20,000 nucleotides of DNA. Origin: Microthyrium microscopicum (Eukaryota). The stretch covers positions 938,842-958,841 of the forward strand of contig MU004240.1 in assembly GCA_010405405.1 (NCBI GenBank), read 5' to 3'. Positions 1,519 through 19,600 of the stretch are shown one piece after another. The translations under genes and the position numbers were made by a program. Each line of letters begins with the position of its first letter. The stretch's first letter is position 1. The notes beneath the pieces are model-generated. The model ran no database searches and was not told where the DNA came from. It saw only the letters and a program-made list of their open reading frames with translations.

Positions 1519-1836
1519 TGTCACGGACCCCTATAGACTCGCTATAGAGGCATAGGTATCTTGCTACCTCTTTACTCTCTCTACTCTTACAATACGCTAT
1601 AGAAAGGCTTTTTGCTAGTAAACTACTAAGTTAATATAAATAGTACCTACTCTCTATTATAATAAGATAAAGCTAAATAGAGCTAAGGATAAGAAGAAGA
1701 AGTAGCCTTACTAAAAAGAAGATAGAGAGGAGTATAAGTAAAGAAGTAGACTTAATCTCTAGAGAGATTAAGTATTAGTTTTATCTTAATACTAGTTCTT
1801 AGAATCTATTTCCCTTACTTTAAACTATCCTTTATA
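1519..1836 (+). repeat. Element B 5' LTR
   Basis: Starts TGTCACGG and ends CCTTTATA. Ungapped alignment to 9970-10287 with about 39 differences by hand count, all transitions. Confidence 0.96.
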
Positions 1837-1886
1837 ATTCTAATACTTCTCAACGTACTATATAGTAGTAAGCTTAATAGATTCTT

Positions 1887-3053
1887 ATAATAATAAGGAG
1901 TATAAGGAACTTTAATAGAAGCTAAAATAAAAGCAAAGATAAAAATAAAGACCTAAATAATAACTTAGATAATAACTTAGATAATAACTTAAGTTAATAT
2001 AATAACCTACTACTACTAATAGACTTAGAAGCTACTTTAGCTATCCTTTATATAATAATAGCTTAAATTAATGAATAAGAATAAGCACACGTAGCTAAGA
2101 TATAATAGCTCTATAATAAGATTATAGCCTTATTATAAGCCTCTTAATAGAATCCTCCTCCTCCTTCTTAACTAAGAGAATTAAAACCTACTAACCTTAT
2201 AGTCCTTTAATATAAAACTTAATAAGAACTTATTAACTAGACTATAAGAGTAGAAAATGCTTTCTATTTAGTACCTTCTTAATTCGCTATATAAGAAAAC
2301 TATATTAGATAAGCTAGCTAGTTTATAAGTCTTAACCTATAAACTTAATAGAACCTAAAGAAGAAGAAGATTAAGCTACTAACTTAAACTTAGGAAAAGT
2401 TTATAGAATAGCTCTAATATTAATACGCTTACCTTACTATAGCTAAACTTTTAGTTACTAAGAAACTTAAAAAAGCTAAGTAGCGTTCTACCTAGACTCT
2501 TATAGAGTTTAATACCTACTTAGACTTACTAGAAACCTAACTTAGTATTAATATGACTTACGAAAGAGATAAATAATACTTAAAATTCCTTACTAAGCTA
2601 ACCTTAGAACTATAGAAATAGATTAAACTAATAGAGTATATCCTAATTACTAGACTAGATATAGTTAATACTATTAAATACTTTTAGTAAATTACCTATA
2701 AGCGCTTATAAGAAGATCTATTAGGTAACGTTAATTCTTAACCTCTATAATTAAATTATAATCTATAAGATAGCTAAGATAAATAATAGAGGCGTAAAGG
2801 TCGTATAAGGTATATACTATTAAATTACTTACTAGTAAGTATAAAGCCTAAAAAAGATAGCAAGATATATAAGGGAATTACCTATTATAATTATAACCTA
2901 TTTAGATATTATATAAATAAGTATAATAAGCTTCTAAGAGGCCTTTAGGTTACCTAAAGGCAAGGAAGTTTCTTAAAATATAGAAGCTAAAGGAGGAACC
3001 TAAATACTATTCTTCTCTTATTAAGATCTAGAATTAACCTAAAAAAAGAGTAA
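1887..3053 (+). pseudogene. gag: Element B gag relic with CCHC zinc knuckle
   Basis: Single frame with an acidic N-terminus (12-bp repeat read as DDDS) and YYNYNLFRYYINKY at 2883-2924 (de-RIP CX2CX4HX4C). Ends AAA AAA GAG TAA at 3053. Start position approximate. Confidence 0.8.
1958..1991 (+). repeat. 12-bp tandem repeat (TAATAACTTAGA, about 3 copies) in gag 5' region
   Basis: Directly visible; in the gag frame it de-RIPs to an acidic DDDS repeat. Confidence 0.8.
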
Positions 3054-6000
3054 GTATTATAGGGGTTAAGAACCCTATCCTTATAATACTAGATTAAACT
3101 ATAGAGGTATAGATTTAGATAATAACTAATCTTCCTCTTACTATAAAAGATTAATCTATAAACGTTCTCTTAGATACTAGTAGTTAAATTAATATTATTA
3201 ATAAATAATTTACGTAATACTATAGCCTTAAGAAAGTAACTATAGAAAGTATTTAAGTTATAGGTTTTACTAATAATATAATAGAAAGCAAATATTATAG
3301 TATATATTAGCTATATTTTTATTATAAAGACTTCTCTAGTATCTATAAGAATATTAAATACTATTTCTTCTCTTTTAATTAGACTAAATATATCTACCTT
3401 ATAGTATAGGGAACCTCTCTATAAGAGAAATATAATATTTCTATCTACCTAAGGTAGAAGAAGTAGCTATTTAGAAAAGAGAAGCTAAAATACGAGATTA
3501 TAGACTAGAATATATTTAAGAAAAAGCTATAAGAATATAGTAAAATATTTAAACTAACTATAAAATTTAATAAGTACCTATACTTAAATAGTAGAAAGGT
3601 AGAGATCTCTAGTATTAGCTTTAAGCTAAGCTTATAGGCAGATATTAATCTAAAAAATAAACTACTATAAGAGCTATAGAATTTAGCCTCTTAAGTTAAG
3701 GCTAGAGATAAAAATAAACCTATCTCTAAAGGTATTAAATATACTATTAAGATAACTATAGATCCTCCTTTTAGACCTATCTATAACTTATTAGTAATAA
3801 AATTTAAGATACTATAAGAATACCTTAAGTTAGCTCTTATAAAAGGCTAAATCTAGGAATTAACTAGCCTAGCTAGAGTACCTATACTCTTTATACCTAA
3901 GAAGAATAAAGGATTACGACTTTATATAGACTACTACTTACTTAATATAGTTACTATTAAAAACTATTACCTATTTCCTTTAATAAGTAAGATATTAGAT
4001 TAACTTAGTAGAGTAGTATACTATACTAAGATAAACCTTAAGAATACCTATACCTAAATACTTATTAGAAAATAAGATTAATAAAAGATAGTATTTTATA
4101 CCTAATATAGATACTATAAATACTAAGTTATACCTTTTAGACTTACTAATACCTTAGTTATATTCTAAGCCTATATTTATAAAGCATTAGTAGAACTCTT
4201 AAATATTATTTATATTATCTACCTTAATAATATCCTTATCTTCTTTAAAATATATAAGGATTATATTTATAATATATATACTATATTAGAATACCTACTA
4301 GCTACTAAGCTTTATACTAATCCTAAAAAGTATTAATTCTTTACTAACGAGGTAGAATTCCTTAGTTTTATAGTCTCTATAAAAAGAGTAAAAATAGATC
4401 TTAGTTAAGTTAAGTTTATTACGAAATAGCTAGAGCCTAGGAGCTATAATAATATATAAGTATTTATTAGCTTTATAAATTTCTATTATAGGTTTATTAA
4501 AGGCTACTTAAAGGTAACAAAACTCTTAACTAACTTACTTAAAAGTATATAACTTAAAAGGAAATATAGACCTTTTATTTAGATAAAGAAAGTAGCGTAA
4601 GTATTTTATATACTTTATATAGCTTTTAATAAAGCTCCTATCTTTATATATTTTAACTTAAAGAAAAGGATTTACCTTAAAATTAATATATCCTAGCATA
4701 CTATTATAGGTATTCTTTCCTAGCTATAGAAAGATAGCTAATAGTACCTTATTACTTTTTAGTTAAGGAAATTAATAAAGGCTAAGATTAACTATTAAAC
4801 TTATAATTAGGAACTTCTTATTATTATTAAAGCTATAAAATATTAGTAATATTATCTTAAGAATAGTTACTACTCTATTAAGATTCTAACTAACTATAAT
4901 AACCTAGTAGGGTTTATAAAATAGAAAAACTTAAATAGGTACTAAGTGTGCTAAGCAATTATACTAGTAAAGTATAACTTCTATATTAGGTATTAAAATA
5001 GAAAGATAAATTTTATAGATATACTATTAAGATAACTTAACTATACTACTATAGAATAGGCTATAAATAACTTGCTACTTACCTTTTAGAAGAAGCTAGA
5101 ACTCCTTTTAGAAAAAGAATAAAAAAAGCTAGTCTTTATAAATAGTCTTAAGCTAATAAAGTAACTTACTAGTAAGATACTAATAATAAATAAGTATAAC
5201 TTTATAGATAAGATATTTAATATTAAGTACTACCTAGTACTAAATATATTAAGAATAGGTAAGATACCTTATAAGTAAATAAGTAGCTAAGATGCTATAA
5301 GTAAAGAGAGTAAAGACTTTCTTAGCTCCTAAAAAATAGTTACTACTCTAGACTATATTTATATCCTAAGAATTATAGTAAGAAAAGTAATATAAGACCT
5401 ATATATTATAAATAGAGAAGCTCTAAATATACTAATTACTTTAGTCTAAGTTACCTAAGATAGTAATAAGGAACTTAAGTATATCTAAGAAGTATTTAAT
5501 ATATAGCTAGAGTCTAAAGAGACCTAATAGCTAAAGAATACTTAGTTAGTTTAAAGAGACTACCTCTACTATAAGAGCTAATTATATATACCTTATAAGC
5601 TTACCTTAAGAAATAAACTCTTAGTAATATACTATAATAACCTACTAGTAAGATACCTAAGGATCTAAAATACTATAAAACTACTCTATAAATAGTTTTA
5701 CTAGCTAAAAATAGAAGAAGACGTATAGATATATATAAAGACTTACCTAGTCTACTAAAGGATAAAAGTAAGATAATATTAACCCTATAGTGAGTTAAAG
5801 TCTCTACTTTAATTAACCTAACTATAATAAGAAATTACTATAGACTTTATTATAAGTTTACTACCTTATAAATATAAACTTATAATATTTAACGCTATAC
5901 TAGTAATTATAGATTAGTATACTAAATAAATAAGGTATATTAAAACTATAAAAAATATAACTACTAAAGAGCTAGTAGAACTTATAGAAAAAAGAATTTT

Positions 6001-6950
6001 CTTAGAAAAAGGCCTACTAGTAGGTATTATATTAGATAGAGAATTTATCTTTATAAGTAAATTTTAAACTAAACTATACTAAGTAAGAAAGGTAAAATAT
6101 AGGCTATCTATAGCCTAGTATCTATAAATTAATAGCTAAACTAAGTAGTAAAACTTAGTACTAAGATATTACCTATAAGCCTTTACTATTAAAAACTAGA
6201 TAAACTAGTTAAGCCTCCTACTTATAGTATAATAGGTAATAAATATATCTTATAATAAGATACTTAACTATACTCTAAATATAGCTAAAATAAGATATAA
6301 ACTAACTCTCTTAGTAGACCTTCTTATAGACTCTAAGAATAGGTTTAAAGAAGAAGGAAGTAAGGTAGTAATAGTAAAGTAAAGAGTAGTAAAAATAGAA
6401 TAAGACTAAGAAAAGATAGTAGAATGCTAAGGAAAAGTAGTAGAATACTAAGCTAAGTTCTATAATAAGAAGTATACCCTAATATTATTCTATATAGGAG
6501 ATAAGGTTCTACTATTAATAAAGAATATTAAACTTAAATTACTAAGTAAGAAGCTAGCTTTTTACTATATAGAACTATTTAGTATTTAAGACGTAGTTAG
6601 AGAATAAGCCTACTAACTAAACCTTCTAATAGGCTACTAAATCTATAACGTCTTCTATATATCTAAACTTAAGCTATATTATTAAAAAGAAGGTTAAGAA
6701 GAACTAGAGCTCCTTATAGCTATTAAGCTAAAAGATAAAGAAGAATAGAAAGTAAGAGCTATCTTAGATAAGAGAAAATAAAAAAGGAAAGTTAAATATT
6801 TTATTTATTAGTAAGGCTATCCCCTAACTTATAACTCTTAAAAATAAGAAAAAGACTATAAAAATATATAAGACTTAATTAAGGTTTTTAAAAAAGCTAG
6901 TAGACCTAAGTTTATTATTATAAAGAAAAGAAAAAGAGAAAAATAAAACT
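3050..6950 (+). pseudogene. pol: Element B pol relic (PR-RT-RNaseH-IN-chromodomain), -1 frame relative to gag
   Basis: VLLDTSS at 3164 (LLDTGS); PPFRPIYNL ~3764; PILFIPKKNKGLRLYIDY ~3881; YLNNILIF at 4220 (YLDD); integrase HHCC region ~5630-5757; ITIDFI ~5834; YL*INS*TK ~6119 (HPQTDGQTE); chromodomain EE*KVRAILDKR...YFIY**GY at 6740-6820. Ends approximate. Confidence 0.93.
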
Positions 6951-7123
6951 ATAAAGAAAGGTATTATAAGAGAGAAGAGATTTTTATATACTTTTTATTT
7001 ACTATAAAAAAGTAACTAATTAGTAGGATAAAAAATAGAAAACTAAAAATAAAAATAGTAAAAATTATAACTAGGTAAATTATTAATAAGACATAAATAA
7101 AACCTAAATAAAATTAAGGAGTC

Positions 7124-9558
7124 TTATAAGAGACTAGTAGGCTAGTACTATAAAAAAAAGGACTCTTCTCTATAGAGATAAAAAGAGTAGACTACTAGCG
7201 AATATAATAAAAAATAAGAATTTTTCTTAAACGCTATAATTATAGATAGCAAGTTAATAAAAAGACTAGTCCTAAAAGATATTAAGACTAGTAACTTACG
7301 CCTAAAGAAATAAATAAATATAGTATTTACGTAATTAAAACGTAACCTAATTACTAAACCCTAATTCTATATATTAAAACGCTATAACTTTAAAAGTAGG
7401 CGTTAGATACTATTAGTTACTCTAAGACTATTAGAAAAGGAGTATATAATAAATATAGCTAGAGTAATTAGCGTACTATTAGTAAATAAGTAAGTAGATA
7501 AAGAAATATTATAAGTTATAGGCGCTATAAGCGTAGGAGGAGGATAAAGATAGCTAGAATTAATACTAATAAAATTAATACTACTATCTAAGTTATAGTA
7601 AATAGTTACTTTATTAATAGTACGACGCTATTAGAATTAGTAAAGAAAGTAAGCTATTTTATTAATATATTAAGCCTAAGCCTAAGTAGCTAGAAAAAAG
7701 CTATAGAAGGATAGTATAGTCTCTTTATTAAACTACTTAGTCTATATACTATCCGCCTCTTTATCTTTAACCTTCTTTATAATAGGCAGATATACTATAA
7801 AGTATAAAGTACTAATATCTAGAATAAATTTAGGAGACATATAAGCTCTAAATATAATAATATTCTCCTTATTTTAGACTAAAAAAGATAAGAAGTAAAT
7901 ATAAGGATAATTACCCTATATAGGTAGACTACTAGTAGGTAGAGATAATAAAGAGTTATTAGTAGTAAGACTTAGCTCCTAGCAAAGATTAAGTAGTTTA
8001 AAGCCTTTTAAATAGATTCTTATAAGCTAGATAGGTGCTTAAACCTATAACTAAGTATAGGATATAAGTAAAAGATAATTCTAAGAATAATAGTTAATAA
8101 GAGTATAACTTATAGATAAAATATAGAAGAACCTATACTAAGATACTAAATATTATTAGCCTACTCTAGCGCATCTTTAATATAACTAAGTATAATATAA
8201 ATATAGAATACTATATTTAAGGCTATAGAATAGCTATAGCCTCCTAGGTAATTCTCTATATAATACTAAGCTATAATAAAAGTATTATAAGCTTATTAAT
8301 AATATATTAACTCCTTATTATAAATATAGTATATATTACTATACTAATAAAACTTAATAAAAGAACCTAAAGGCGTAACAACTATAATAGAACTTATAAA
8401 GTTAAGAGATATAAGATAAATATATAAGTAGATTAAATTATTTATAACCTTATTAAAGACTATAGGTATCTAAATAGAGGTTAGCATATAAGCTACATCT
8501 AAGTTACTAATAAGATACTTATAATATTATAATAGTACTTCTAGTAGGTATAGTAATAGTACTTAGTAAAGTTGTTCTTATAACTATATATAGTACTTTA
8601 TAGAATATAGCTACTATTAGGATAATAGTAGACTATATTATTAATAATATTCTATAAATATTAGAAATAATATAAGAAGAGAAGTAGAGTAGGTATAGCT
8701 TAAAAATAGGATGTAATCTAAGTAATATTCTATAAAAGTATAAGTTAATAAAAGAATTAAGCAAGTTACTTATAATATACTTACTATAAAGGCTTATTAC
8801 TAAGTAGTCTAAGCTATAGGACTTAGGTCTATATCTTCTAGCTTACTAGGTAAGTTATCTAACTTAGACTCTTTATTATCTAGAGATAATATATAAAATA
8901 GCGTAGGAGTATTTTAATAAGTAGATTACTTCTTAATTATAGGATAAGTAGTAAATAGCTATAAAGGCTCTAGTAATAGAGTGTCTTTATAATAATATTT
9001 TCTATTAGCTTAAAAAGCGTATAAAGTATAGGTTAGCTATAGAGTAGAGTTAGTAATTAAGTTAATTATAGTAGTACTAAGAGGTACTTAAAGTAGGTAA
9101 TAAAAGCTATTAATACTACGTTAGGCTAAATAAAAAATAAATAGTAAATTAGCACTAGTAATAATATAGCCTAAGGGCAATAAGACGTAAAGGGTTAATA
9201 AGCCTTCCTAAAGCTTTAAGAGGGCTACCTAGTTAGTAAGTTAGACTAAGTTATAATTATATAACTTAAGCCCCTTAAGGGTACGCTAAGGACCCTATAG
9301 AATATAAAGAGTAGTAGAACGCTAGTAAGTTATATACTTAAAAGGTTAGCTATTATATTACTAAGATTATTAAAACTCTTAAAAGGCGTAATAGGTTCCT
9401 AAAGAATAATTACCTAGATTAAGGTTAACTAACTGCTTATTTTCCTATAAATTACTATTATTAATAAAGTTATTATTACTAAAGGAATTAATATTAATAA
9501 GGTCTTAATAAGACGAATTACTACTATACGAACCGTTAGAATAATAATAAAAAGATAT
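7124..9558 (-). pseudogene. Antisense five-exon accessory gene relic of unknown function inside element B (~735 codons)
   Basis: Exons 9558-8785, 8729-8523, 8469-8137, 8080-7300, 7233-7124. Introns of 55, 53, 56 and 66 nt with donors GTAAGT, ATAAGT, ATAGGT, GTAAGT, branch sites GCTAAC or ATTAAC, and TAG acceptors. Spliced frame is continuous and protein-like after de-RIP. Start (ATA for ATG) and stop are inferred. Confidence 0.75.
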
Positions 9559-9955
9559 TATAAGAGAATAATTAAAATACTATTAAAACGTATATTAAAA
9601 AGCTAAAAGTGTTAGAAATAAGTAAAAAAAGTATAAATAGAATATAAAAAGGATATAAGTTAAATTAAGGACTCTAGAGAGATATAGTTTTTAAAACTTT
9701 TAAGATTTTAGGTAGGTAATATACTTATAAATTGCTTATAAGAAGAAGAGATTATAGTATTAAGAAGATAGAGTATTATAGTCCTAAAATGTTTTAGTAT
9801 TATATATATATATAATACCCTTATAATAAATAGAGTTATTATTATTTATATAATAAGTACTATAGTAACTCTAAAGGTAGGAATACTATAAGTTAAGACT
9901 ATACCTACTAAAAGAGGAAAGCATAATAGCTAGGTTATTAAGAGCGACTTCCTTT

Positions 9956-9966
9956 AAGAGAGGAAG
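9956..9966 (+). other. Polypurine tract of element B
   Basis: AAGAGAGGAAG ending 3 nt before the 3' LTR. Confidence 0.8.
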
Positions 9967-9969
9967 CTT

Positions 9970-10287
9970 TATTATAAACCCTTATAGACTTGCTATAAAA
10001 GCGTAAGTATTTTACTACCTCCTTACTCTCTTTACTTTTATAATATACTATAGGAAGGCTCTTTGCTAGTAAACTACTAGGTTAATATAAATAGTACCTA
10101 CCCTCTACTATAATAAGACAAAGCTAAATAGAGCTAAGGATAAGAAGGAGAGGTAGCTTTATTAAAAAGAAGATAAAGAGGAGTATAAATAAAGGAGTAG
10201 ACTTAATCTCTAAAAAGATTAAGTATTAGTCTTGTCTTAATACTAGTTCTTAGAATCTATTTTCCTTGCTTTAAACCATCCTTTATA
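9970..10287 (+). repeat. Element B 3' LTR
   Basis: Starts TATTATAA (RIP form of TGTCACGG), preceded by a purine tract and followed by TSD ACTTT. Confidence 0.96.
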
Positions 10288-10292
10288 ACTTT

Positions 10293-13040
10293 ACTATAGT
10301 CTATATAGATAATATCCTTATTTTTAGTAAGATATATAAGGAATATATAACTTATATATACTTAGTACTTAATAAGCTAAAGAAAGCTAGCCTATATCTT
10401 AATATCTATAAATTAGAATTTACTACTATAAAAGTAAAATATTTAGGGTTAATTATTACTATAGAAGGTATTAAAATAGACTCTATAAAGATAGAATTAG
10501 TATTAGAATAGAAATAACTATTATGTATTAAAGACGTTTAAGCTTTCCTTAGTTTTGCTAACTTCTATTGCTATTTTATATAAGGATACTTAGAGATTAC
10601 TATACTTCTTATAGCCCTAATAAAGAAAGATGTAGTTACTATATTCCTATAGGATATTAAAGAACTAAAAGATTAAGTATTTAATAAACTAAAGAAGGCG
10701 TTTACTATAGCACCTATTTTAAAGCATTTTAATTATACTAAGGAGACCTAGCTTAAGACTAATACGTCTAATTAGGTATATACTAGAGTATTATCTTAAA
10801 AAGATAATAATAGAAATCTATATCCTATAGCGTTCCTTTTAAAAAAGATATTACTAGTAGAATATAATTATAATATCTATAATAAAGAACTTCTTATAAT
10901 TATATACGCTTTTAAAGAATAGGAACTAGAGCTATTCTCTACTAATAATCTTATTAAAGTATTCTTAGATTATTAAAATCTATAGATATTTATAACTACT
11001 AAGAAGCTTTTACGTTATTAAGCATACTAAGTAGAGTTTTTATTATAGTTCTATTTTAAGATTATATATTATTCTAGACTAGCTAATAGAAAAGTAGACG
11101 TACTAATTTAGTGTTCTTAAGACTTACCCTAGAGTAATAATAATTTACGTATCTAGTACTAGGTATACCCTTTACTTTTTCCTTACTAGTTTAATATTAC
11201 GTATATAATTAAAATAGTACGCCTACTAGTTAAATCTATTACGTTATCTTTTATATAGATTACTACTATTATTATAAATAAGTTAAATTTCTCTACTAAA
11301 GTAGAAGAGTTATTAGAGGACCCTATAATAGTAGACCTTAGTAATAAGGACTAGCCTAAGAACGCGCCTAAGGGTAACTTCTTAGAGTTTAATAAATCTC
11401 TAGACTTTAACGTTAATTAGTTTCTAATAAAAATAATAGAAGTAGGTAAAAATAATATATTGCTAAATGCTATTCGTTATACTAAGTAAGAAGGATTACT
11501 ATACTTTCCTTTTAGTATCCTAGAATAATAAGATATTAAGCTTAGTAATTATATAATCTTAGTAAAAGGCCTAGTTCTTTACTACTAATATATTCTAATA
11601 TCTAAAGGTAAGCTTTATTATTATACTATAATATATACTTACTATTATAAAGTTATAAGTTATAGAGGCTTAGTAACTACTTATTACTAGCTCTAGTAAG
11701 ATTATTAGTAGCTATATATATTGTAAGATATAAAGAAGTATATCTTAGGATATAAATATATTTTTACTAAACTTATTTGCTAGAAGAAGTAAGGACTTCT
11801 TTAATTATTCCCCTTACTAAAGTAAGCGTAGTTAAATATCTTAATTAACTTTACTATCTCTCTACCTTAGTATACCTATTTAGGTATTACTTTTCGTTAT
11901 ATTATAGTTATTATAGACTAATATACCTACTAATAGCGCTTTGTTTCTTTATCTAATCTCTTTATAGAGATAATAGTTCTTATATTTATTAATTAAGTCT
12001 AGAAGCTAACTAGATAACTAAATATAATTCTATTAAATAGAGAGTTATAGTTTACTTTAGCATTTTAGAAGTAATTATATAATTAAGTAAGCATAGTACT
12101 ATAGCTAAGTACTATATAGTATCTATAGACTAATAGAATTATAGAAATCTTAATATTAGTACTTAAGTAATATCTTTACGCTTTTATTAACTAGGATTAA
12201 GATAATTAAGTCTAGTTACTACTATTTATAGAGTTTGCTATTAACTCTACTATTAGTATAACGATAGGCTTTACTTTATTTAAGATTTAATATAGTTTCC
12301 TTCCTAAATCTAGACTTAAGTTATTTTACTAAATACTAGTACTATACTAATACTTTTCCTCTTTAGCTTAATAAGAATAGAAAGACGCTAATAAGATATA
12401 GAAAGACTATAAAGATATATATAATTATCTTATAAAATAGCTAATGTAAGCATAAGTATAATAAGCTAAATAGGCTAATAAGTACTAATGTATAGCGCTA
12501 GATCTCTAACCTAGAGACTAGGTACGTCTAGATATTTAAAACTACTATATAATACGTGTGTCTAAGACCCTTAATAGTAAAAGTATAGAGCCTTTCTATA
12601 TTCTAAAGAAACTTAACGCTATTATATTTAAACTTAACTTACTAAAGTATATAAAGATATACTCTATATTTTATATTTAGCTACTATATACTATTATAAA
12701 TAATGTAGAGCTTCTACGTTAATATAACTCTCTACTAGTAGTAGTAAGTAGAGCGCTAGAAGAAAAAGAGTAGTAAGTTAATAAAATCCTTAATAGCTAC
12801 TATAAAAAGGGCACTTATAAGAAGTTAGAATACCTTATAAAATAGACAAGTTACGACACGCCTTTATAGTAGCTATAGGAAGACCTTAAGAATATAGTAA
12901 ACTTAATCTATAACTTCTATAAATATAATCCTATAAAGCCTAGCCCTAACCCTAAGTAGTTACTACCTATTATTAGACCTAATATATCTAACTCTACTAA
13001 TTATAATAGTAATAGATTACTAGACAACTAGTTAGAGTAA
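10293..13040 (+). pseudogene. pol: Element A pol, 3' part (RT YxDD, RNase H, integrase, chromodomain)
   Basis: TIVYIDNILIFS at 10293 (YxDD); LKTNTS ~10752 (LETDAS); YNYNIYNKELL ~10863; LINF ~11842 (SIDF); YL*TNRIIE ~12120 (HPQTDGxTE); EPF ~12587 (GPF); chromodomain E**VNKILNS...LEYLIK*TSY at 12768-12855 (EWQVDEILDS...LEYLVKWTGY). Same frame to TAA at 13038-13040; exact end uncertain. Confidence 0.92.
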
Positions 13041-13229
13041 TAGAAAAGTATTTATTTATTTATTTATATTGCGCTACTATTAGCACCTTATTAGCGCTAT
13101 AAACTAGAGTATTCTAAAGATATCTAGGTTCGTTAATGCTTAGATAGTTACCTTAGTAGGCTAGAGGATAGTAAAATAGCAAAAGGGTACAGATAGCATT
13201 TTATTAAATACAAAGCAGATTAGATTAAA

Positions 13230-13279
13230 CTAGACTAGACTAGACTAGACTAGCCTAGCTAGGCCTAGAATAGAATAGC
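13230..13279 (+). repeat. (CTAGA)n pentanucleotide repeat in element A 3' untranslated region
   Basis: Four perfect CTAGA units from 13230 followed by degenerate units. Confidence 0.8.
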
Positions 13280-13312
13280 ATAAATTAAAACGTAGCTTAG
13301 AGCACTAGTTTT

Positions 13313-13323
13313 AAAGGGGGAAG
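13313..13323 (+). other. Polypurine tract of element A
   Basis: AAAGGGGGAAG ending 3 nt before the LTR start at 13327. Confidence 0.88.
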
Positions 13324-13326
13324 TAA

Positions 13327-14122
13327 TATAAGGATTTCTTACTAAAGTATAATAGCTTTAGTATTAAGCTAGATCTTAAACAAAGATTTAGCGGCGCTAG
13401 TCCCAATTAGGACTAGCGTCCCTAAGGATCTTCCAAGTATTACCCTCTTCTTTCCTTAGCGTAGATTCTACTCTACCTCTCTCTCTCCCTTTGTACGCTA
13501 GATCGTTAAATATTATCTACCTATAACGCCGCAGAGCGATCCCTACCTAAACGGCTCAACTAATGCAAAAAGTACCGTAGTATCTAAGCTTGGACACTTT
13601 GTAGGATCGTACGTATATATTCTACACGTTAGGAGCTATTATAGGCTCCTATGGCTAGCATCTCGCTGCCGTACGGAATACTCTTATAATATACACTCCT
13701 CTCTTTAATAAGCCTATCCTTAGGCGATAATATATACGCAACTTTTAGTAATAGGCTTAAAGCAACGTTATTATGTTCTTTACGTAATGTAAGCACTAAG
13801 CAAATCGTTATGCTTTATAGGCTATACAGTTCTATTGCCTTTACACGAATTAAACCTACAACCTATAGATTTACAAACTTAGTAGGAGTAGTACTATATA
13901 AGCTTAGACACTTTATAACGCTATAAGGCGATCCTTACCTAAATGGCTTAACTAATGCAAAAAGTATTATAGTATCTAAGCTTAGACACTTTGTAGGATT
14001 GTACGTACATATTCTGTACGTTAGGAGCCGTTACAGGCTCCTATAGCTAGCATCTCGCTGCCGTACGGAACGCTCCCGTAACACTACCCTTTACTTAATT
14101 ACGTGCCTATTAGATCCTTATA
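13327..14122 (+). repeat. Element A 3' LTR (229 bp after removing the TRIM and one TSD copy)
   Basis: Follows the PPT; 9-bp terminal inverted repeat TATAAGGAT/ATCCTTATA. The partner 5' LTR is outside the window. Confidence 0.82.
13522..14083 (-). mobile_element. TRIM-like non-autonomous miniature LTR retroelement (562 bp)
   Basis: 170-bp direct repeats at 13522-13691 and 13914-14083; 222-bp non-coding interior; TSD CTACC at 13517-13521 and 14084-14088; minus-strand purine tract AAAGAGAGGAG next to the left repeat; right end reads TGTTACGG on the minus strand. Confidence 0.92.
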
Positions 14123-15020
14123 GATATATATAGTACTAATAAAAAGCTAAGACCTAAAAAAGAGGCATCTTAACTATAAAATAATAAAAATTATATTAGA
14201 ATTATAAATTAAAATAATAATATATAAGTTAAGCTATAAATAAAGACTTACTATTTATACTAGAAAGATATTAGTTTAGAATAAGAGTTCTAATATAATT
14301 CTAAAACTTATAAGCTTAGTATAATAAAAAAAGTAAACTATAAGTTAAAAAGAGCGTAAGCAAGAGAATTATATTAATAAAATTATAGTAGAAATCTTAT
14401 ATAGCGGAAAAAGTAATTGCTCTAGAAATTCTTAAACTTATAACCTATATTATTATTATTTCTACTATAGCTATATAAGTAAAAGTAGAATTATAAGGAA
14501 ATTATAATAATATACTTATGTAAAGTAAGTTATTATAACGTAATAATAATCTATAATGCTATTTAGAAGCTAATAGCTAGTAGAATTATTAAAGAATTAT
14601 AATATTAAAAAAGAAAATAAAGTAAATATATCTAGATTCGTACTTATAGTTCGTAGCGTAATAGTAGCTATTATGAATATACTTAATAATAACGCTAGAA
14701 TTATAAGAGAAATCTAGGCTAGAGAAGAGAGAGAATATATAGTTAGCTAACGTAATCTTCTTCTATAAAAGTAGAAATCTAATCCTAAATAAAAACTAAG
14801 AGAATTACGTTAGAATTATAATTAAGACAAAAGATAAATATTATACTAGTACTATAGTACTTACTATAAAAATGCGTATAGAGCTAAGAAAATAGTTAGA
14901 TATAATACAAAATTCTAGTAAGCTACTTACGCCTTTCTAAGTATAGGTTTTACTATAAACCTAACTATCGTTATAAAGAACTATATAGCTATAGGACATT
15001 AAAGAATTCTAGTATAATTA
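14123..15020 (+). pseudogene. Possible RIP-degraded intron-containing gene, truncated at its 5' side by element A
   Basis: Protein-like frame from the LTR boundary; intron GTAAGT (14525)...GCTAAT (14569)...TAG (14580 or 14583) links it to a stop-free stretch reading LLKNYNIKKENKVNISRFVLIVRSVIVAIMNILNNNARIIREI. No recognisable domain. Confidence 0.45.
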
Positions 15021-15740: not shown

Positions 15741-15990
15741 GATCTAAAATAAATATTAGTAACTTAACTATTCTATAAGAATTTACTTCTATTTAATATC
15801 TTAATTAAGTCCTAACTTAAGATAAGAGAAGCATTATAGTTCTACTAGAATTCTTATATTATATCTTTATAATATTACTTCTATATAACGTTATTTAATA
15901 ATATTTTATTAGCTTTTATTAACTAATCTATTTAATAAATACTCTATTAACTATAGACTATTAATTCTTTATTTAACTACTAAAATATCT

Positions 15991-16495
15991 TAAGATATAT
16001 ACGTAACGTTTATTTACTATAAAATACGTACTAATTCTATTTTTACTCTAAATAATATAGTTCTACTAGAATTCTTATAATATATATTTATAACTTTACT
16101 ACTACTATAATATTACTTTAATCTTTTAACTATATTACTTAATCTATAGGCTTATCTATAAGCTAATCTATAGGCTAATTTAATATCTAACTTTAGAATA
16201 ACGTAGCTAAAAATAATAGCAAGAAAGTTAAAGTTAATATTAAAATATACATACTACGTTTATTTACTAGTAGAATGTACGCTAGTTCTATCCTTACTTC
16301 TAATAATATAATTCTACTAGAATTCTTATATTATATATTTATAACTTTACTTCTACTATAATATTACTTTAACCTTTTAACTATAATACTTAATCTATAA
16401 GCTAATCTATAAGCTAATCTATAGGCTAATTTAATATCTAACTTTAGACTAACGTAGCTAAAAATAGTAGTAAGAAGATTAAAGTTAAAATTAAG
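15991..16495. repeat. ~250-bp tandem duplication containing 12-bp sub-repeats
   Basis: ACGTTTATTTACTA at 16006 and 16256; ACGTAGCTAAAAATA at 16201 and 16452; each copy has about three TAATCTATA(G/A)GC units. Partial copies near 15830-15890 and 16497-16595. Confidence 0.88.
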
Positions 16496-16649
16496 CTTAA
16501 AATATATATACTATATTAAACGTATATCTCCTATACTAGTTTTATACTAAAGAGCATAGTTTTGCTAAAATTCTAGTATATCTTTATAATATTATATCTA
16601 CGTAATATTATTTATCTAATAGATTAAGTTCTACCCTTACTACTATAAT

Positions 16650-19600
16650 TTTATTCTTTAATCTTAGCTTTTCCTTTAAACTTTTAAGCTTTTTCTTTAA
16701 AGCTACTTTTCTAGCCTCTACTTTAATATTTTCTTTAGTATTACTTATCCTAAATTACTATCTACATTATCTTAAAAATATAGATATACCTTTATCTCTA
16801 GACGTAGGTTATTAAAGTATAGCTAGATTATTAAGTTCTAAAAGAGCTTAATATAAATTAAATATTTATAATAGCTTATATAAATTTATAATATTAAAAG
16901 GCTATAATAAGTCCTTTACCTTACCTTTTACTTATCTTTAATTACTTTTATCTATTAATTATATTAAATTATATATATATAAGCTATACTATTATTATAT
17001 TCTACCTATAAAGTTACTACTATATATAATCGCCTTAAGTATAATTACGCTAAATTAATATAGCTAGGCTAGCTTAAATAACTATATCTACTTCTACGTT
17101 AAATTCTTATATTTATTATTAAGTTCTATAAGAATTATAAGTAAATATAGCTTTAATATATTAAGTATTATATAGTTATACTTTATAATACCTTCTATTA
17201 ATAATAAACCTTTACTAATAATATTATCTTATATATATAATAATTCTTCTATATTTATATCTTTATAAGCTAATTATTATACTTATACTAATATTAAACT
17301 CTTTTCTACGTATAAACTAGCTAAGATCTAAAGGTTAGTCTTATAGTTAAGCTATATTTTAAGATCTAGCTATACCTATATTATCTTTACTAATTCTACC
17401 TTAATTAATACCTTATTATTATCCTCTCTTTATAGATTCTTTATCTAGTACTTTATAAAATAAATTAAAAAGCGCTTTATAAAGTTTTAATATATATAGA
17501 TAAGATAAAATACTAAGAAGTACTATAGATATACCTTCTATAAAAACTTAGAATATATTTCTACTAAGTACTCCTTAAAGCTTATAAATAATATTTAGTA
17601 TTAGTATAATCTATTATATATATATAAGAATTATATAATATATCTTTTACTTATTTTAAATATATATCTACTATAATAGCCTAAATTTCTTAACTATATA
17701 TATAATCTTAATTTATAGGCTAGCCTAAGACGTTAACTAATATCTTAAAGACTTATCTAAATATTTTCTAATATACTAATATAGTCTCTCTATTTATCTA
17801 AATATATATAAATACTTAAAGTCCTATAACCTTTATTAATATTTATCTTATATATAGTAACTATAATATACGCTATATTAAAAGGTACTAACTAACTAGA
17901 CTATATATTATTATCTTACTATTAATTATTTAAAAGGATAAGTCTATTTAAATAAAAGAAACTTACTAAAATACTTTAGCTTAACTTTCTATATAATAGA
18001 TAATAAGGAAATACTTTTAATTAGAAAAGTAGTAAATATCCTAAATCTATTATTCTTTTTATAGATAAAGCTTATTAAATTAGAACTCTTACTTAATCCC
18101 TAATATATTATTAGCTATATTTTATATAATTAATATAGAACTATAATATATATTAGCAAGACTTATTCCTAAAAGATAGTATAAGAAATAAAAAGCCTAA
18201 ATTATAATACCTAACTAGTTCTTATTTATAAGCAAAGTATAAATCTCTAAAAGCGTAGATTTCCTAAATTACTTATATAAATAAAGTATAGCTAAAAAGA
18301 TTATAAATTATTCTATTATTATTTAAATAAGTTAGCTTTATATATTATATATAATAAAAGACTTAATATATAAAGAGTAACTATTATTAAGTCTTTACGC
18401 TTAATAATAGTCTTAAGCTACTATTATAGATTAGTAAGAATTCTTAACTAAGGAGAAGGATAATATATATAACTCTTTTTAATAATAAAAATTAAATATA
18501 AATACTAAAGCTAATGCTTTAGAATATAGAAATAAAATTTTATATTATACTTTAACGTAATATTATTTTGTTTTCCTTCTAAATGCTTATATACTATAAT
18601 TATACTTTTATTAACTATAAATTATATATAAACTATATTATAACTTATAATAATATTTATAAATTTATTAGAATAACTATATATATATATAAAGACTTCT
18701 TAACTAAACTTTAGTAACTCTATTTACTAAACTTTTTAAATATACTAAGTTAATTTAATCTCCTAATATTAACTAAATAGAATACTAAAGATTAGTCTTA
18801 TTCTAGAAACTATATCTAATAAACTTAGCCTAGATTACTAAATTAGAATTCCTATATACTTCTATAATATATTAAGATAAGAATATATATAAGCCTCTAA
18901 AAAAATATTCTAACGTCTTAATTTAATATTTAATAAAGAAGAAATAGCTTATTCTTATTATAATAGCAATAAAAGCTTTAAAAACGAAATTACTAATAAA
19001 AGCCTTTATGCTAACTATATAATATTAGTATTCTAAAATATAAGAATATAAAGAATAATTACTTCTAAATAGATCTATTTAACTAAACCTCTATTAAGTT
19101 ATCTAGATAAGAGAAAGTATACTATTAAGTAATTACTCTAATTTAATCTACCTAAACTTAGTTATAACTTAGTAAATACTATATAATATTTAGCTAAATT
19201 ATTACGTAGTACTTAACTCCTTTATAGTAATATATTAAATACTATACTCTTAAGCTATCTAATTTTAAATCTTAAGATAAGAAACGAAGAGCAATTAAAA
19301 AAGAACTACTTCTCTTAAAAGGTTTAAACTAAATCTACTTACTATTAGTACCTAAATAGTTATATAAGTCTCTTTAAAAAGATAGAGAATTAAGCTTATA
19401 TTATTTATAAAGGTTTTTATAATTTTACTAGCTATACTTTTCTATTACTTAACTAATATTATAATAAGAAAAAAGTTAGGATCCTCTTAATAATAAGGAT
19501 TCTCTAAGTAATAAATAAAATATATAATTCTTATTAGATCTATATTAGGGTATAGTAGAATCTAAGTATAATCTTAATACTCTAATATAGTAATATTATT

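Follow-up and report, generated by a model that had tools for sequence, protein, structure and literature searches.

Antisense genes in described elements and the structure of element B

In fungi, an antisense gene named brtn, located between pol and the 3' LTR, is described for the Boty elements of Botrytis and Sclerotinia in passages of PMC7264820, PMC8365987 and PMC4227169 that cite Zhao et al. 2011 (Virology 417:248). In plants, the elements Grande1, RIRE2, Retand and PvRetro13 are described as having an additional ORF in antisense orientation at the same place (review PMC7264820; for Retand also PMC11963269); by the account in PMC7264820, most copies of a family contain such an ORF, and its function is unknown. 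The retrotransposon considered here, referred to as element B, is located in a window of 20,000 nucleotides from Microthyrium microscopicum (assembly GCA_010405405.1, contig MU004240.1, positions 938,842 to 958,841), and it likewise holds a family-shared extra sequence between pol and the 3' LTR, hereafter the module. Similar to the Boty elements as these sources portray them, element B is a fungal Ty3/gypsy element, with a chromodomain-like part, whose extra sequence is carried by family copies, and an antisense orientation is plausible for it; however, element B measures 8.77 kb and the Botrytis elements BcGypsy1 and BcGypsy2 only 6.4-6.6 kb and 6.4 kb, the module is much longer, and brtn is likened to it by description, not by sequence. 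The plant ORFs share the position of the module, but they reside in plant hosts and mostly in non-chromovirus lineages, and they too are likened by description. An earlier reading of this DNA, made from the sequence only, took canonical chromoviruses to encode nothing besides gag and pol; this premise is contradicted by the antisense brtn of Boty-like fungal chromoviruses, as presented in the same three sources.

Element B spans 8,769 bp in total and is a complete chromovirus remnant with a 5-bp duplication and 318-bp LTRs. The sequence-only reading had called it a complete LTR retrotransposon, which is borne out by the LTR pair, the ACTTT duplication, the polypurine tract (PPT) and the pol remnant among the following features:

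1514-1518, no strand: target-site duplication ACTTT, 5' copy
1519-1836, plus: 5' LTR, 318 bp, TG...TA, pairing with 9970-10287
1900-2900, plus: probable gag remnant, in the frame starting at 0-based position modulo 3 = 2 (+2, weakly the best)
2930-6976, plus: pol remnant in frame +1, from Pfam matches and alignment to relatives' proteins
~4622-4975, plus: RNase H of pol (Pfam RT_RNaseH_2, 5e-10)
~6497-6680, plus: integrase SH3 of pol (Pfam SH3_Tf2-1, 8e-6), the last Pfam match before the 3 kb that follow
to ~6890, plus: chromodomain-like part of pol, aligning to the chromodomain region of relatives
to ~6943-6976, plus: Lys/Arg tail of pol, with relatives' proteins aligning to 6910-6976
6980-9954, no strand: extra internal module, family-wide, with a RIP level like that of pol
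9955-9966, plus: PPT AAGAGAGGAAGC, next to the 3' LTR
9970-10287, plus: 3' LTR
10288-10292, no strand: target-site duplication ACTTT, 3' copy

The LTR pair with its short target-site duplication and the PPT beside the 3' LTR are those of a Ty3/gypsy chromovirus, and pol follows the gypsy order of RT, RNase H and integrase. Alignments with proteins of relatives extend over 4676-6976, that with P0047 over 4676-5053 and 5564-6835, and the RY-collapsed alignment of 79 relatives against element B covers 3460-6873. In this copy the RT domain itself does not reach Pfam E=1, Pfam Chromo gives no match at E<=1 although the stretch aligns to the chromodomain region of relatives, and the gag region 1900-2900 has no Pfam match. 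Element B is itself nested within another gypsy pol.

This copy is a dead relic destroyed by repeat-induced point mutation (RIP). All 39 substitutions between its two LTRs are transitions, with not one transversion; a TpA/ApT index of 1.75-1.83 and a second index, (CpA+TpG)/(ApC+GpT), of 0.04-0.08 mark it as a RIP-mutated repeat, and differences from copy to copy are almost all transitions (1776 transitions against 40 in run X1). The module, with a TpA/ApT of 1.75 and a GC content of 0.235, has RIP indices like those of pol. The whole window lacks a stop-to-stop ORF of 80 aa. A stop occurs every ~12-17 codons in all frames, so that this copy can make no protein. Since any stop can be attributed to RIP, asking whether a frame is open after deRIP tests nothing.

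Family-wide occurrence of the module and its counterparts in relatives

The sequence-only reading placed about 3 kb between the end of pol and the PPT, which is indeed the case (pol ends at ~6943-6976, and the PPT is at 9955-9966). Three DNA runs of one sample (X1-X3) yielded 1518, 1540 and 1574 contig pieces of at least 80% likeness over 1827-9977, which cover 30 of 30 bins, module included, with a contig depth at the listed places of 5-15 in the module versus 3-21 in pol. Because contigs cover these 3 kb as they cover pol, the module is family-wide and an integral part of the repeated element family, not a private insertion. In agreement with the same reading, no internal LTR, TIR or duplication was found in the module. 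A comparison of the module with the remaining sequence of the window also showed no similarity. Runs of the same genome contain parts of the module in a GC-rich, little-mutated form, and a single little-mutated contig in X1-X3 is collinear with ~7458-9795; another run, X5, guessed to be RNA, gave 5 contig pieces of at least 80% likeness, which carry no strand information, and its GC-rich contigs are collinear with ~7448-8239, 8812-8923 and 8895-10195. None of the four intron sites proposed in the sequence-only reading is spanned by the aligned parts of contigs.

Relatives of element B differ in what follows pol. The canonical fungal chromoviruses (P0002, P0003, P0004, P0012, P0047; L003, L055) have a pol like that of element B, with 28-55% identity to the RIP-mutated copy and the same Lys/Arg tail after the chromodomain; their pol ends just after the chromodomain, and the SH3-to-LTR distance is 0.3-0.7 kb, in contrast to 3.3 kb in element B. 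The long-spacer relatives (L042, L024, L047, L078, L053, L033, L018 family) resemble element B in having a long spacer with codon periodicity between pol and the LTR, which keeps to a single phase in these relatives, whereas several phases occur in the module. Ten related loci with LTR pairs, all from metagenome contigs, have their integrase SH3 1.8-2.6 kb from the 3' LTR. While pol scores plus in all ten, the whole spacer scores best in one minus-strand phase in five (L042, L024, L047, L078, L053), favours plus in L033, and has no whole-spacer frame in the other four. For example, the L024 spacer contains 16 stops in 543 minus-strand codons versus 28-47 in the other frames, and the L042 spacer reaches +42 bits over 2.2 kb in a single phase; Pfam Chromo is found in L042, L024 and L018. 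Neither the module and the spacers of relatives nor those spacers among themselves showed any similarity, and the relatives thus serve as analogy, not homology. A majority and deRIP consensus of the L042-family spacer has no ORF above 122 aa, a result that is uninformative since the same procedure missed the pol of that family. Comparisons of the module in the R/Y two-letter alphabet returned 2564 weak and uncalibrated matches, the top one at 106 bits against 900-1177 for pol, and these were taken as noise.

Probable traces of former coding sequence

Coding sequence besides gag and pol was probably once present in the module, where three stretches stand out:

7200-8050, no strand: coding-like block X, triplet phase fitting -0 or +1
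9150-9950, no strand: coding-like block Y, triplet phase fitting -1 or +0, not the proposed -2
8531-8842, minus: 69-aa open run (8633-8842) in frame -0 with low-stop surroundings, TpA phase 24, 23, 7 in 8523-8729

The TpA phase is 96, 54, 46 in block X (p=1.6e-5) and 30, 64, 68 in block Y (p=3.1e-4). Transitions can neither create nor erase R/Y periodicity, which makes it RIP-invariant; for the whole window it peaks at 9151-9900 (p=9e-4 to 4e-5, with a best value of 3.9e-5 in block Y), and it reaches p=2-3e-3 at 7351-7950, the best value in pol being 1.6e-3. No tandem repeats that could explain the periodicity were found, and both blocks are at least as strongly periodic as pol. The phase signal is absent from the middle kilobase, 8100-9150 (p=0.6). 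A generic R/Y codon model, which chose the true frame in six of six known coding segments, scores both blocks positive, and a codon score trained on pol found no pol-like frame in the module.

Searches of Pfam (six frames), PDB sequences (four frames) and Rfam gave no match to the module, one PDB match at E=0.28 being ignored, and no transposase or RT signal appeared in six frames. With stops written as X, protein searches of frame -0 over 6901-8080 (candidates of 216-688 aa) and of frame +0 over 9001-9975 (178-569 aa) returned nothing; frame +1 over 5402-8101 (495-1575 aa), with words from the pol part only, returned one distant integrase. Similarly, a profile built from a mixed two-row alignment (-1 of 7992-9977 with +1 of 6401-8101) produced 52 matches, all to the pol part and confined to profile positions 4-186. 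According to simulations, a sibling would have been detected by the protein searches. The best control match was only P0009, a 66-aa near-family fragment at 55% identity; the libraries are therefore poor in the element B family, and the blank protein searches weigh little. A search of metagenome contigs for the GC-rich end of a contig (30 letters) gave nothing, and neither did a search with P0009 in viral contigs.

Competing readings of the module

The sequence-only reading interpreted the minus strand from 9558 to 7124 as a third gene with a charged stretch and four introns, located as follows:

8730-8784, minus: proposed intron 1, 55 nt, donor GTAAGT; motif present, inside the open -0 run 8633-8842, unsupported
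8470-8522, minus: proposed intron 2, 53 nt, donor ATAAGT; motif present, unsupported
8081-8136, minus: proposed intron 3, 56 nt, donor ATAGGT; motif present, at the end of the block X phase
7234-7299, minus: proposed intron 4, 66 nt (a multiple of 3), donor GTAAGT; stop-free in -0, inside the open -0 run 7148-7360, not needed
7751-7786, minus: charged stretch PIIKKVKDKEAD, read in frame -0 as P-I-I-K-K-V-K-D-K-E-A-D at 7786-7751

All four strings do exist, with their donors and terminal TAG, and both A-donors (ATAAGT, ATAGGT) are preceded by T, as RIP of T|GT would give; a function as introns is unsupported for 1 and 2, not needed for 4 and at most possible for 3. The motifs are no more frequent than expected by chance: the 2435 nt of the proposed gene contain 6 donors that lead into a valid intron (2.46/kb), the 4201 nt antisense to pol contain 10 (2.38/kb), and first-order Markov copies contain a mean of 3.3 (SD 1.9), with 6 sites reached in 13% of 500 copies. 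Splicing yields the claimed length of 2205 nt, but it does not restore one frame, since 59, 59 and 114 stops remain in the three frames. The exon frames fail as well: the TpA phase permits the frame of exon 4 (-0) and disagrees for exons 1, 2 and 3, exon 5 being too short, and block Y, which would be read in -2, scores -9.4 in that frame and fits -1 or +0. The acidic N-terminus and Cys-rich middle are absent from the sequence as it stands and amount to guesses that N replaced D and Y replaced C. The PxVEEVEDEE-like stretch, by comparison, is real as DNA; translated at the same position, one GC-rich contig from a public run gives I-E-E-V-K-D-E-E-T. The four-intron model is unusable for annotation, and a single antisense gene of 735 codons with these introns is barely credible: the motif strings, the exon 4 frame, the charged stretch and the coincidence of intron 3 with the end of the block X phase speak for it, whereas it is opposed by 59 stops in its own frame, by motif density at background, by phase signals that RIP cannot erase, by the position of introns 1 and 4 within the longest open -0 runs, and by spacers of relatives that require no introns. 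What survives of the third-gene reading is the family-wide module with coding traces and relatives that favour antisense; the four introns, the 2205-nt frame and the exon frames do not.

Strand signals in the module conflict, as stop counts favour minus while purine content and the R/Y model favour plus. Stop densities are 6.4% in -0 versus 10.6% in +1 for block X, 6.0% in -1 versus 8.6% in +0 for block Y, and 5.2% in -0 at 8500-8850; the lowest values in the module (6.4%, 5.2%, 6.0%, 6.0%) are all on the minus strand, and the frame of pol itself shows 8.7-9.6%. The three longest open runs (74, 70 and 69 aa, the latter two being 7148-7360 and 8633-8842) are all in frame -0, and with plus taken as sense the sense-to-antisense stop ratio of block X is 1.66, compared with 0.47-1.3 in nine control blocks. 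The antisense strand of pol has low stops and long runs too, with 8 runs of at least 45 aa on minus versus 6 on plus. The R/Y codon scores, by contrast, are 9.9 for +1 versus 7.4 for -0 in block X, and 10.6 for +0, 2.3 for -1 and -9.4 for -2 in block Y; a path search at a penalty of 6 gives 28.1 for the best plus path versus 14.7 for minus, the same direction as in plus-coded controls. The plus strand is purine-rich (0.56-0.62), unbroken from integrase to LTR, so that a minus-strand gene would be unusually pyrimidine-rich (0.42). The minus phases shift repeatedly across the module (-1, -2/-0, -2, -0), phase breaks lying near 8100, 8500, 8850 and 9150, in contrast to the single phase of relatives' spacers.

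The module is probably the wreck of additional coding sequence in a RIP-destroyed chromovirus. The likeliest reading, at about even odds, is that it was a single long antisense ORF that started close to the PPT and 3' LTR and ran in the direction of pol. Such an ORF agrees with brtn as described for Boty-like elements and with the pattern suggested by the related metagenome chromoviruses, and the lean towards antisense comes from the lowest stop densities and the three longest open runs, all on minus, and from the stop ratio of block X. In an intact master copy, a separate promoter on the LTR side would drive its transcription, convergent with that of pol, and it would pass through the RNA intermediate as passive antisense sequence; the product would be an orphan-family accessory protein with one charged, low-complexity end, which may act on the element's own cycle or on silencing. 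It is unlikely, though worth serious weight, that the extra coding sequence belongs to the sense strand, either as a third ORF downstream of pol (~6980-8010 in the frame of pol, ~9040-9950 in frame +0) or as pieces of host mRNA gained during reverse transcription, in which case the transcript of the element itself would carry it and be the source of any expression. The R/Y codon model and path search prefer plus, block X shares the triplet phase of pol with a +1 score positive without a gap over 6301-8100, the strand is purine-rich throughout as retroelement sense strands are, and the pol-trained codon score prefers +0 over -1 in block Y; however, stops are denser in the plus frame of block X (10.6%) than in either the pol frame or the minus frame aligned with it, open runs on plus reach just 45 and 51 aa, relatives' proteins stop 10-40 residues past the chromodomain (near 6943-6976), the +1 profile (6401-8101) matched in its pol part only while +0 (9001-9975) matched nothing, and 5 of 10 relatives favour minus.

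Two further explanations dispense with an additional gene of the element. An improbable one regards the 3 kb as a non-coding spacer, for instance an extended 3' UTR or regulatory region or a locus that yields small RNAs, whose periodicity is a long-dead relic or an accident; it would account for the lack of protein, domain or structure matches in any frame, for the middle kilobase at p=0.6 and for the lack of a frame with pol-like codon usage, but it is at odds with two blocks of ~0.8 kb whose periodicity equals or exceeds that of pol and is not explained by tandem repeats, and with the still stronger single-phase signals in relatives' spacers (as in L042). Very improbable is a nested origin, in which a piece of some other mobile element inserted long ago into the ancestor of the family and has been carried along since: nesting is common locally, element B itself lying inside a gypsy pol, and blocks X and Y are in different phases, but neither an internal LTR, TIR or duplication nor a signal of transposase or RT was found in the module, nothing else in the window resembles it, and related families likewise have long spacers.

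The antisense ORF reading, if it is extended to relatives, leads to a tentative and rather doubtful proposal: an ascomycete chromovirus clade including the element B family would possess a fast-evolving antisense spacer gene of ~550-900 codons with no or few introns, lacking detectable similarity between families, of which a little-mutated master copy would have survived RIP here. Antisense accessory genes would then be a regular, overlooked part of fungal LTR retrotransposons, not an oddity of Boty. Even for the module itself, an accessory gene would provide a second, much larger case beside the single reported antisense gene of a fungal LTR retrotransposon, hint at a wide occurrence of genes of this kind within one clade of chromoviruses, and offer a handle on the dealings of these elements with host silencing or on their cargo. 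R/Y periodicity and TpA phase, which survive RIP, can reveal the frames of former coding sequence in cases that defeat both ORF finding and homology searches, and they may serve elsewhere.

Element B and the segment beyond its pol

A complete LTR retrotransposon of the chromovirus type, element B spans 8,769 bp (1519–10287), and its two LTRs are 39 transitions and 0 transversions apart. The window is extremely AT-rich (GC 0.17–0.35), neither of its strands holds an ORF of at least 80 aa counted stop to stop, and the indices of repeat-induced point mutation (RIP) are extreme, to the same degree in pol as in the module, the segment between pol and the polypurine tract (TpA/ApT 1.8; (CpA+TpG)/(ApC+GpT) 0.04–0.08); this copy is dead.

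Structural features of element B
1519–1836 and 9970–10287: LTRs, 318 bp each
1514–1518 and 10288–10292: target-site duplication ACTTT, perfect 5 bp, flanking the element
9955–9966: polypurine tract (PPT)

RNase H and integrase SH3 are recognized by Pfam in a single plus frame, with stops read as X; SH3 ends at about 6680, and alignment to relatives' proteins extends to 6910–6976. The pol proteins of relatives carry a Lys/Arg tail and end 10–40 residues past the chromodomain, as does the frame in the window. Because pol ends at 6910–6976, about 3.0 kb (6980–9954) separates it from the PPT, and the gap of about 3 kb described in the sequence-only reading is thereby borne out by both Pfam and relatives' protein ends. 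Upstream, a weak coding signal lies in frame +2 of the gag region (1900–2900) and pol (2930–6943) is in frame +1, which suggests that the two are offset by a single base (a −1 shift).

Contigs from three DNA runs of one sample (X1–X3), aligned to 1827–9977 at ≥80% likeness, gave 1518, 1540, and 1574 pieces covering 30 of 30 bins, with differences that are nearly all transitions (X1: 1776, versus 40 transversions); at the listed variable places, 5–15 different contigs overlap in the module versus 3–21 in pol. Since the module is covered like pol, it is repeated along with the element B family, and a private insertion is excluded. A GC-rich contig of single-copy-like depth in these runs is collinear with about 7458–9795, and a run guessed to be RNA (X5) holds GC-rich contigs across three module parts, these contigs carrying no information on strand or level. 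In our comparison, the ends of the GC-rich contigs differ from the window by A/G and T/C only; hence, little-mutated module copies exist, and at least one has largely escaped RIP.

Coding traces and the four-intron model

RIP causes transitions only, so the ancestral purine/pyrimidine (R/Y) string is preserved. Three-base periodicity in this string reaches the window maximum at 9151–9900 (p = 9e-4 to 4e-5) and is also found at 7351–7950 (p = 2–3e-3; best pol value 1.6e-3), with no tandem repeat that accounts for the signal. Phase counts of TpA, a RIP product, are uneven like those of pol in 7200–8100 (96, 54, 46; p = 1.6e-5) and 9150–9900 (30, 64, 68; p = 3.1e-4), and even in 8100–9150. A generic R/Y codon model, which found the correct frame in 6/6 known coding segments, scores both regions positive, with per-codon values like those of pol. 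From periodicity, TpA phase, and codon-model scores together, it follows that two blocks of about 0.8 kb, block X (7200–8050) and block Y (9150–9950), were probably once coding, with block X compatible with frames −0 or +1 and block Y with frames −1 or +0.

The sequence-only reading had placed here an antisense gene from 9558 to 7124 with four introns (8730–8784, 8470–8522, 8081–8136, and 7234–7299). This observation is partly right: the four intron-like strings are present, and splicing them out leaves 2205 nt; however, the frame is not open, as the three frames of the spliced model contain 59, 59, and 114 stops. Because TAA, TAG, and TGA can all be derived by RIP from CAA, CAG, TGG, or CGA, openness after RIP reversal is guaranteed and has no diagnostic value. 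Intron-like strings (A/G-T-A-R-G-T, a branch-like pentamer, and TAG or CAG within 45–80 nt) number 2.46/kb in the proposed gene region versus 2.38/kb antisense of pol, which is intron-free, and the observed count is reached by 13% of 500 Markov copies. Furthermore, the proposed intron 1 sits within a 69-aa open run in frame −0, and the proposed intron 4 (66 nt), free of frame −0 stops, within one of 70 aa. The TpA phase agrees with the proposed frame for exon 4 only, and frame −2, assigned to block Y, does not fit it. The charged stretch PIIKKVKDKEAD (7786–7751) reads IEEVKDEET in a GC-rich contig, which establishes G>A mutation but does not prove the coding frame; the plus frame is open there too.

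Strand and origin of the module

No homolog of the module was found by Pfam, PDB-sequence, Rfam, protein, and profile searches over the frame and length combinations covered. Little of the element B family is represented in these libraries, because the best control match is only a 66-aa fragment; in simulations, a sibling protein present in them would have been detected. With P0009, a 66-aa fragment near the family (55% identity to the mutated copy), as the query, 79 loci on metagenome contigs were retrieved, in which no similarity to the module was seen in six frames, versus 77 matches for the pol control. LTR pairs were detected in 16 of the 79; integrase SH3 and the 3' LTR lie 1.8–2.6 kb apart in 10 of the 16 and 0.3–0.7 kb apart in three, compared with 3.3 kb in element B. 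A long spacer is thus a frequent feature of this clade. The R/Y model scored pol as plus in all 10 long-spacer loci and the whole spacer best as a single minus-strand phase in five.

Single-phase spacers leaning antisense in related loci
L024: 10500–12130
L042: 10500–12740
L078: 8400–10150
L053: 9400–11260
L047: 10490–12350

The L042 spacer gains +42 bits across 2.2 kb, and the minus frame of L024 has 16 stops in 543 codons versus 28–47 in other frames; L033 leans plus, and four other loci show no whole-spacer frame. The relatives' spacers resemble neither each other nor the window, and no Pfam domain beyond the chromodomain appeared in the three relatives scanned (L042, L024, and L018). They are analogous rather than homologous, but they do shift our odds toward an antisense ORF that requires no introns. 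In the L024 spacer, open runs of 100, 95, and 83 aa persist; a minus-strand Lys/Glu/Ala repeat (KKKEA ×3) adjoining an acidic stretch at L042:11400–11600 is similar in kind to the charged stretch at 7751–7786.

Within the module, the strand evidence divides. The remnant of an antisense ORF lacking the proposed introns, to which we give an even chance, accords with the lowest stop densities, all minus (6.4, 5.2, 6.0, and 6.0% versus 8.7–9.6% in pol's own frame), with the three longest open runs (74, 70, and 69 aa), all in frame −0, and with a plus-as-sense stop ratio of 1.66 in block X, beyond the 0.47–1.3 of nine control blocks; long open runs also occur antisense of pol. Sense-strand coding, about half as probable, is favored by the R/Y model (+0 over −1 by 8 bits in block Y; +1 over −0 by 2.5 bits in block X), by the best path (plus 28.1 versus minus 14.7 at penalty 6, the same direction as in three plus-coded controls), and by a plus strand that is purine-rich (0.56–0.62) throughout from integrase to LTR. 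Both the stop-based and the R/Y strand tests depend on base composition. A non-coding spacer, with which the even TpA phases of 8100–9150 are consistent and against which the traces in blocks X and Y speak, is improbable; an old nested fragment is more so. Least probable of all is the exact four-intron model.

An antisense ORF in this position has precedents in the literature. According to a review (PMC7264820, citing Zhao et al. 2011), plant elements, and likewise Boty of Botrytis cinerea and Sclerotinia sclerotiorum, carry additional antisense ORFs between pol and the 3' LTR. PMC8365987 and PMC4227169 also name the antisense gene brtn; this contradicts the claim that chromoviruses carry nothing besides gag and pol. 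Of the earlier interpretation, the outline of an element-borne extra coding module, quite possibly antisense, stands, and the four introns, the frames, and this claim do not. The Botrytis elements listed in a supplement table measure 6.4–6.6, 7.4, about 11, and 8.3 kb, none matching the 8.77 kb of element B. The word "antisense" does not occur in the survey PMC3248453, and in the literature searched, an antisense ORF of several kilobases has not been reported for any fungal chromovirus, which does not prove absence.

Surroundings of element B

A second, diverged gypsy element (1–1513 and 10293–12900) surrounds element B, which interrupts its reverse-transcriptase region. The outer pol is in frame +0 as far as 1513 and continues from about 10299 in frame +2 (Pfam RVT_1, RNase H, and SH3); in the pol of element B itself, the position equivalent to this break is about 4205/4217. 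Downstream of the outer pol, a GC-richer island (12500–14500; 0.30–0.345) contains two open runs of 68–78 aa and a 157–162-nt direct repeat (13522–13683 and 13914–14075; 392-nt spacing, 86–87% alike). An array of three to four 221–251-nt units, 78–92% alike, occupies 15835–16614, past which GC skew is strongly negative. At 16450–17450, no more than 21 of the 333 codons of one plus frame, on a pyrimidine-rich strand, are stops; the TpA phase is weak (p = 0.04), Pfam gave no match, and the low stop count is probably a composition effect.
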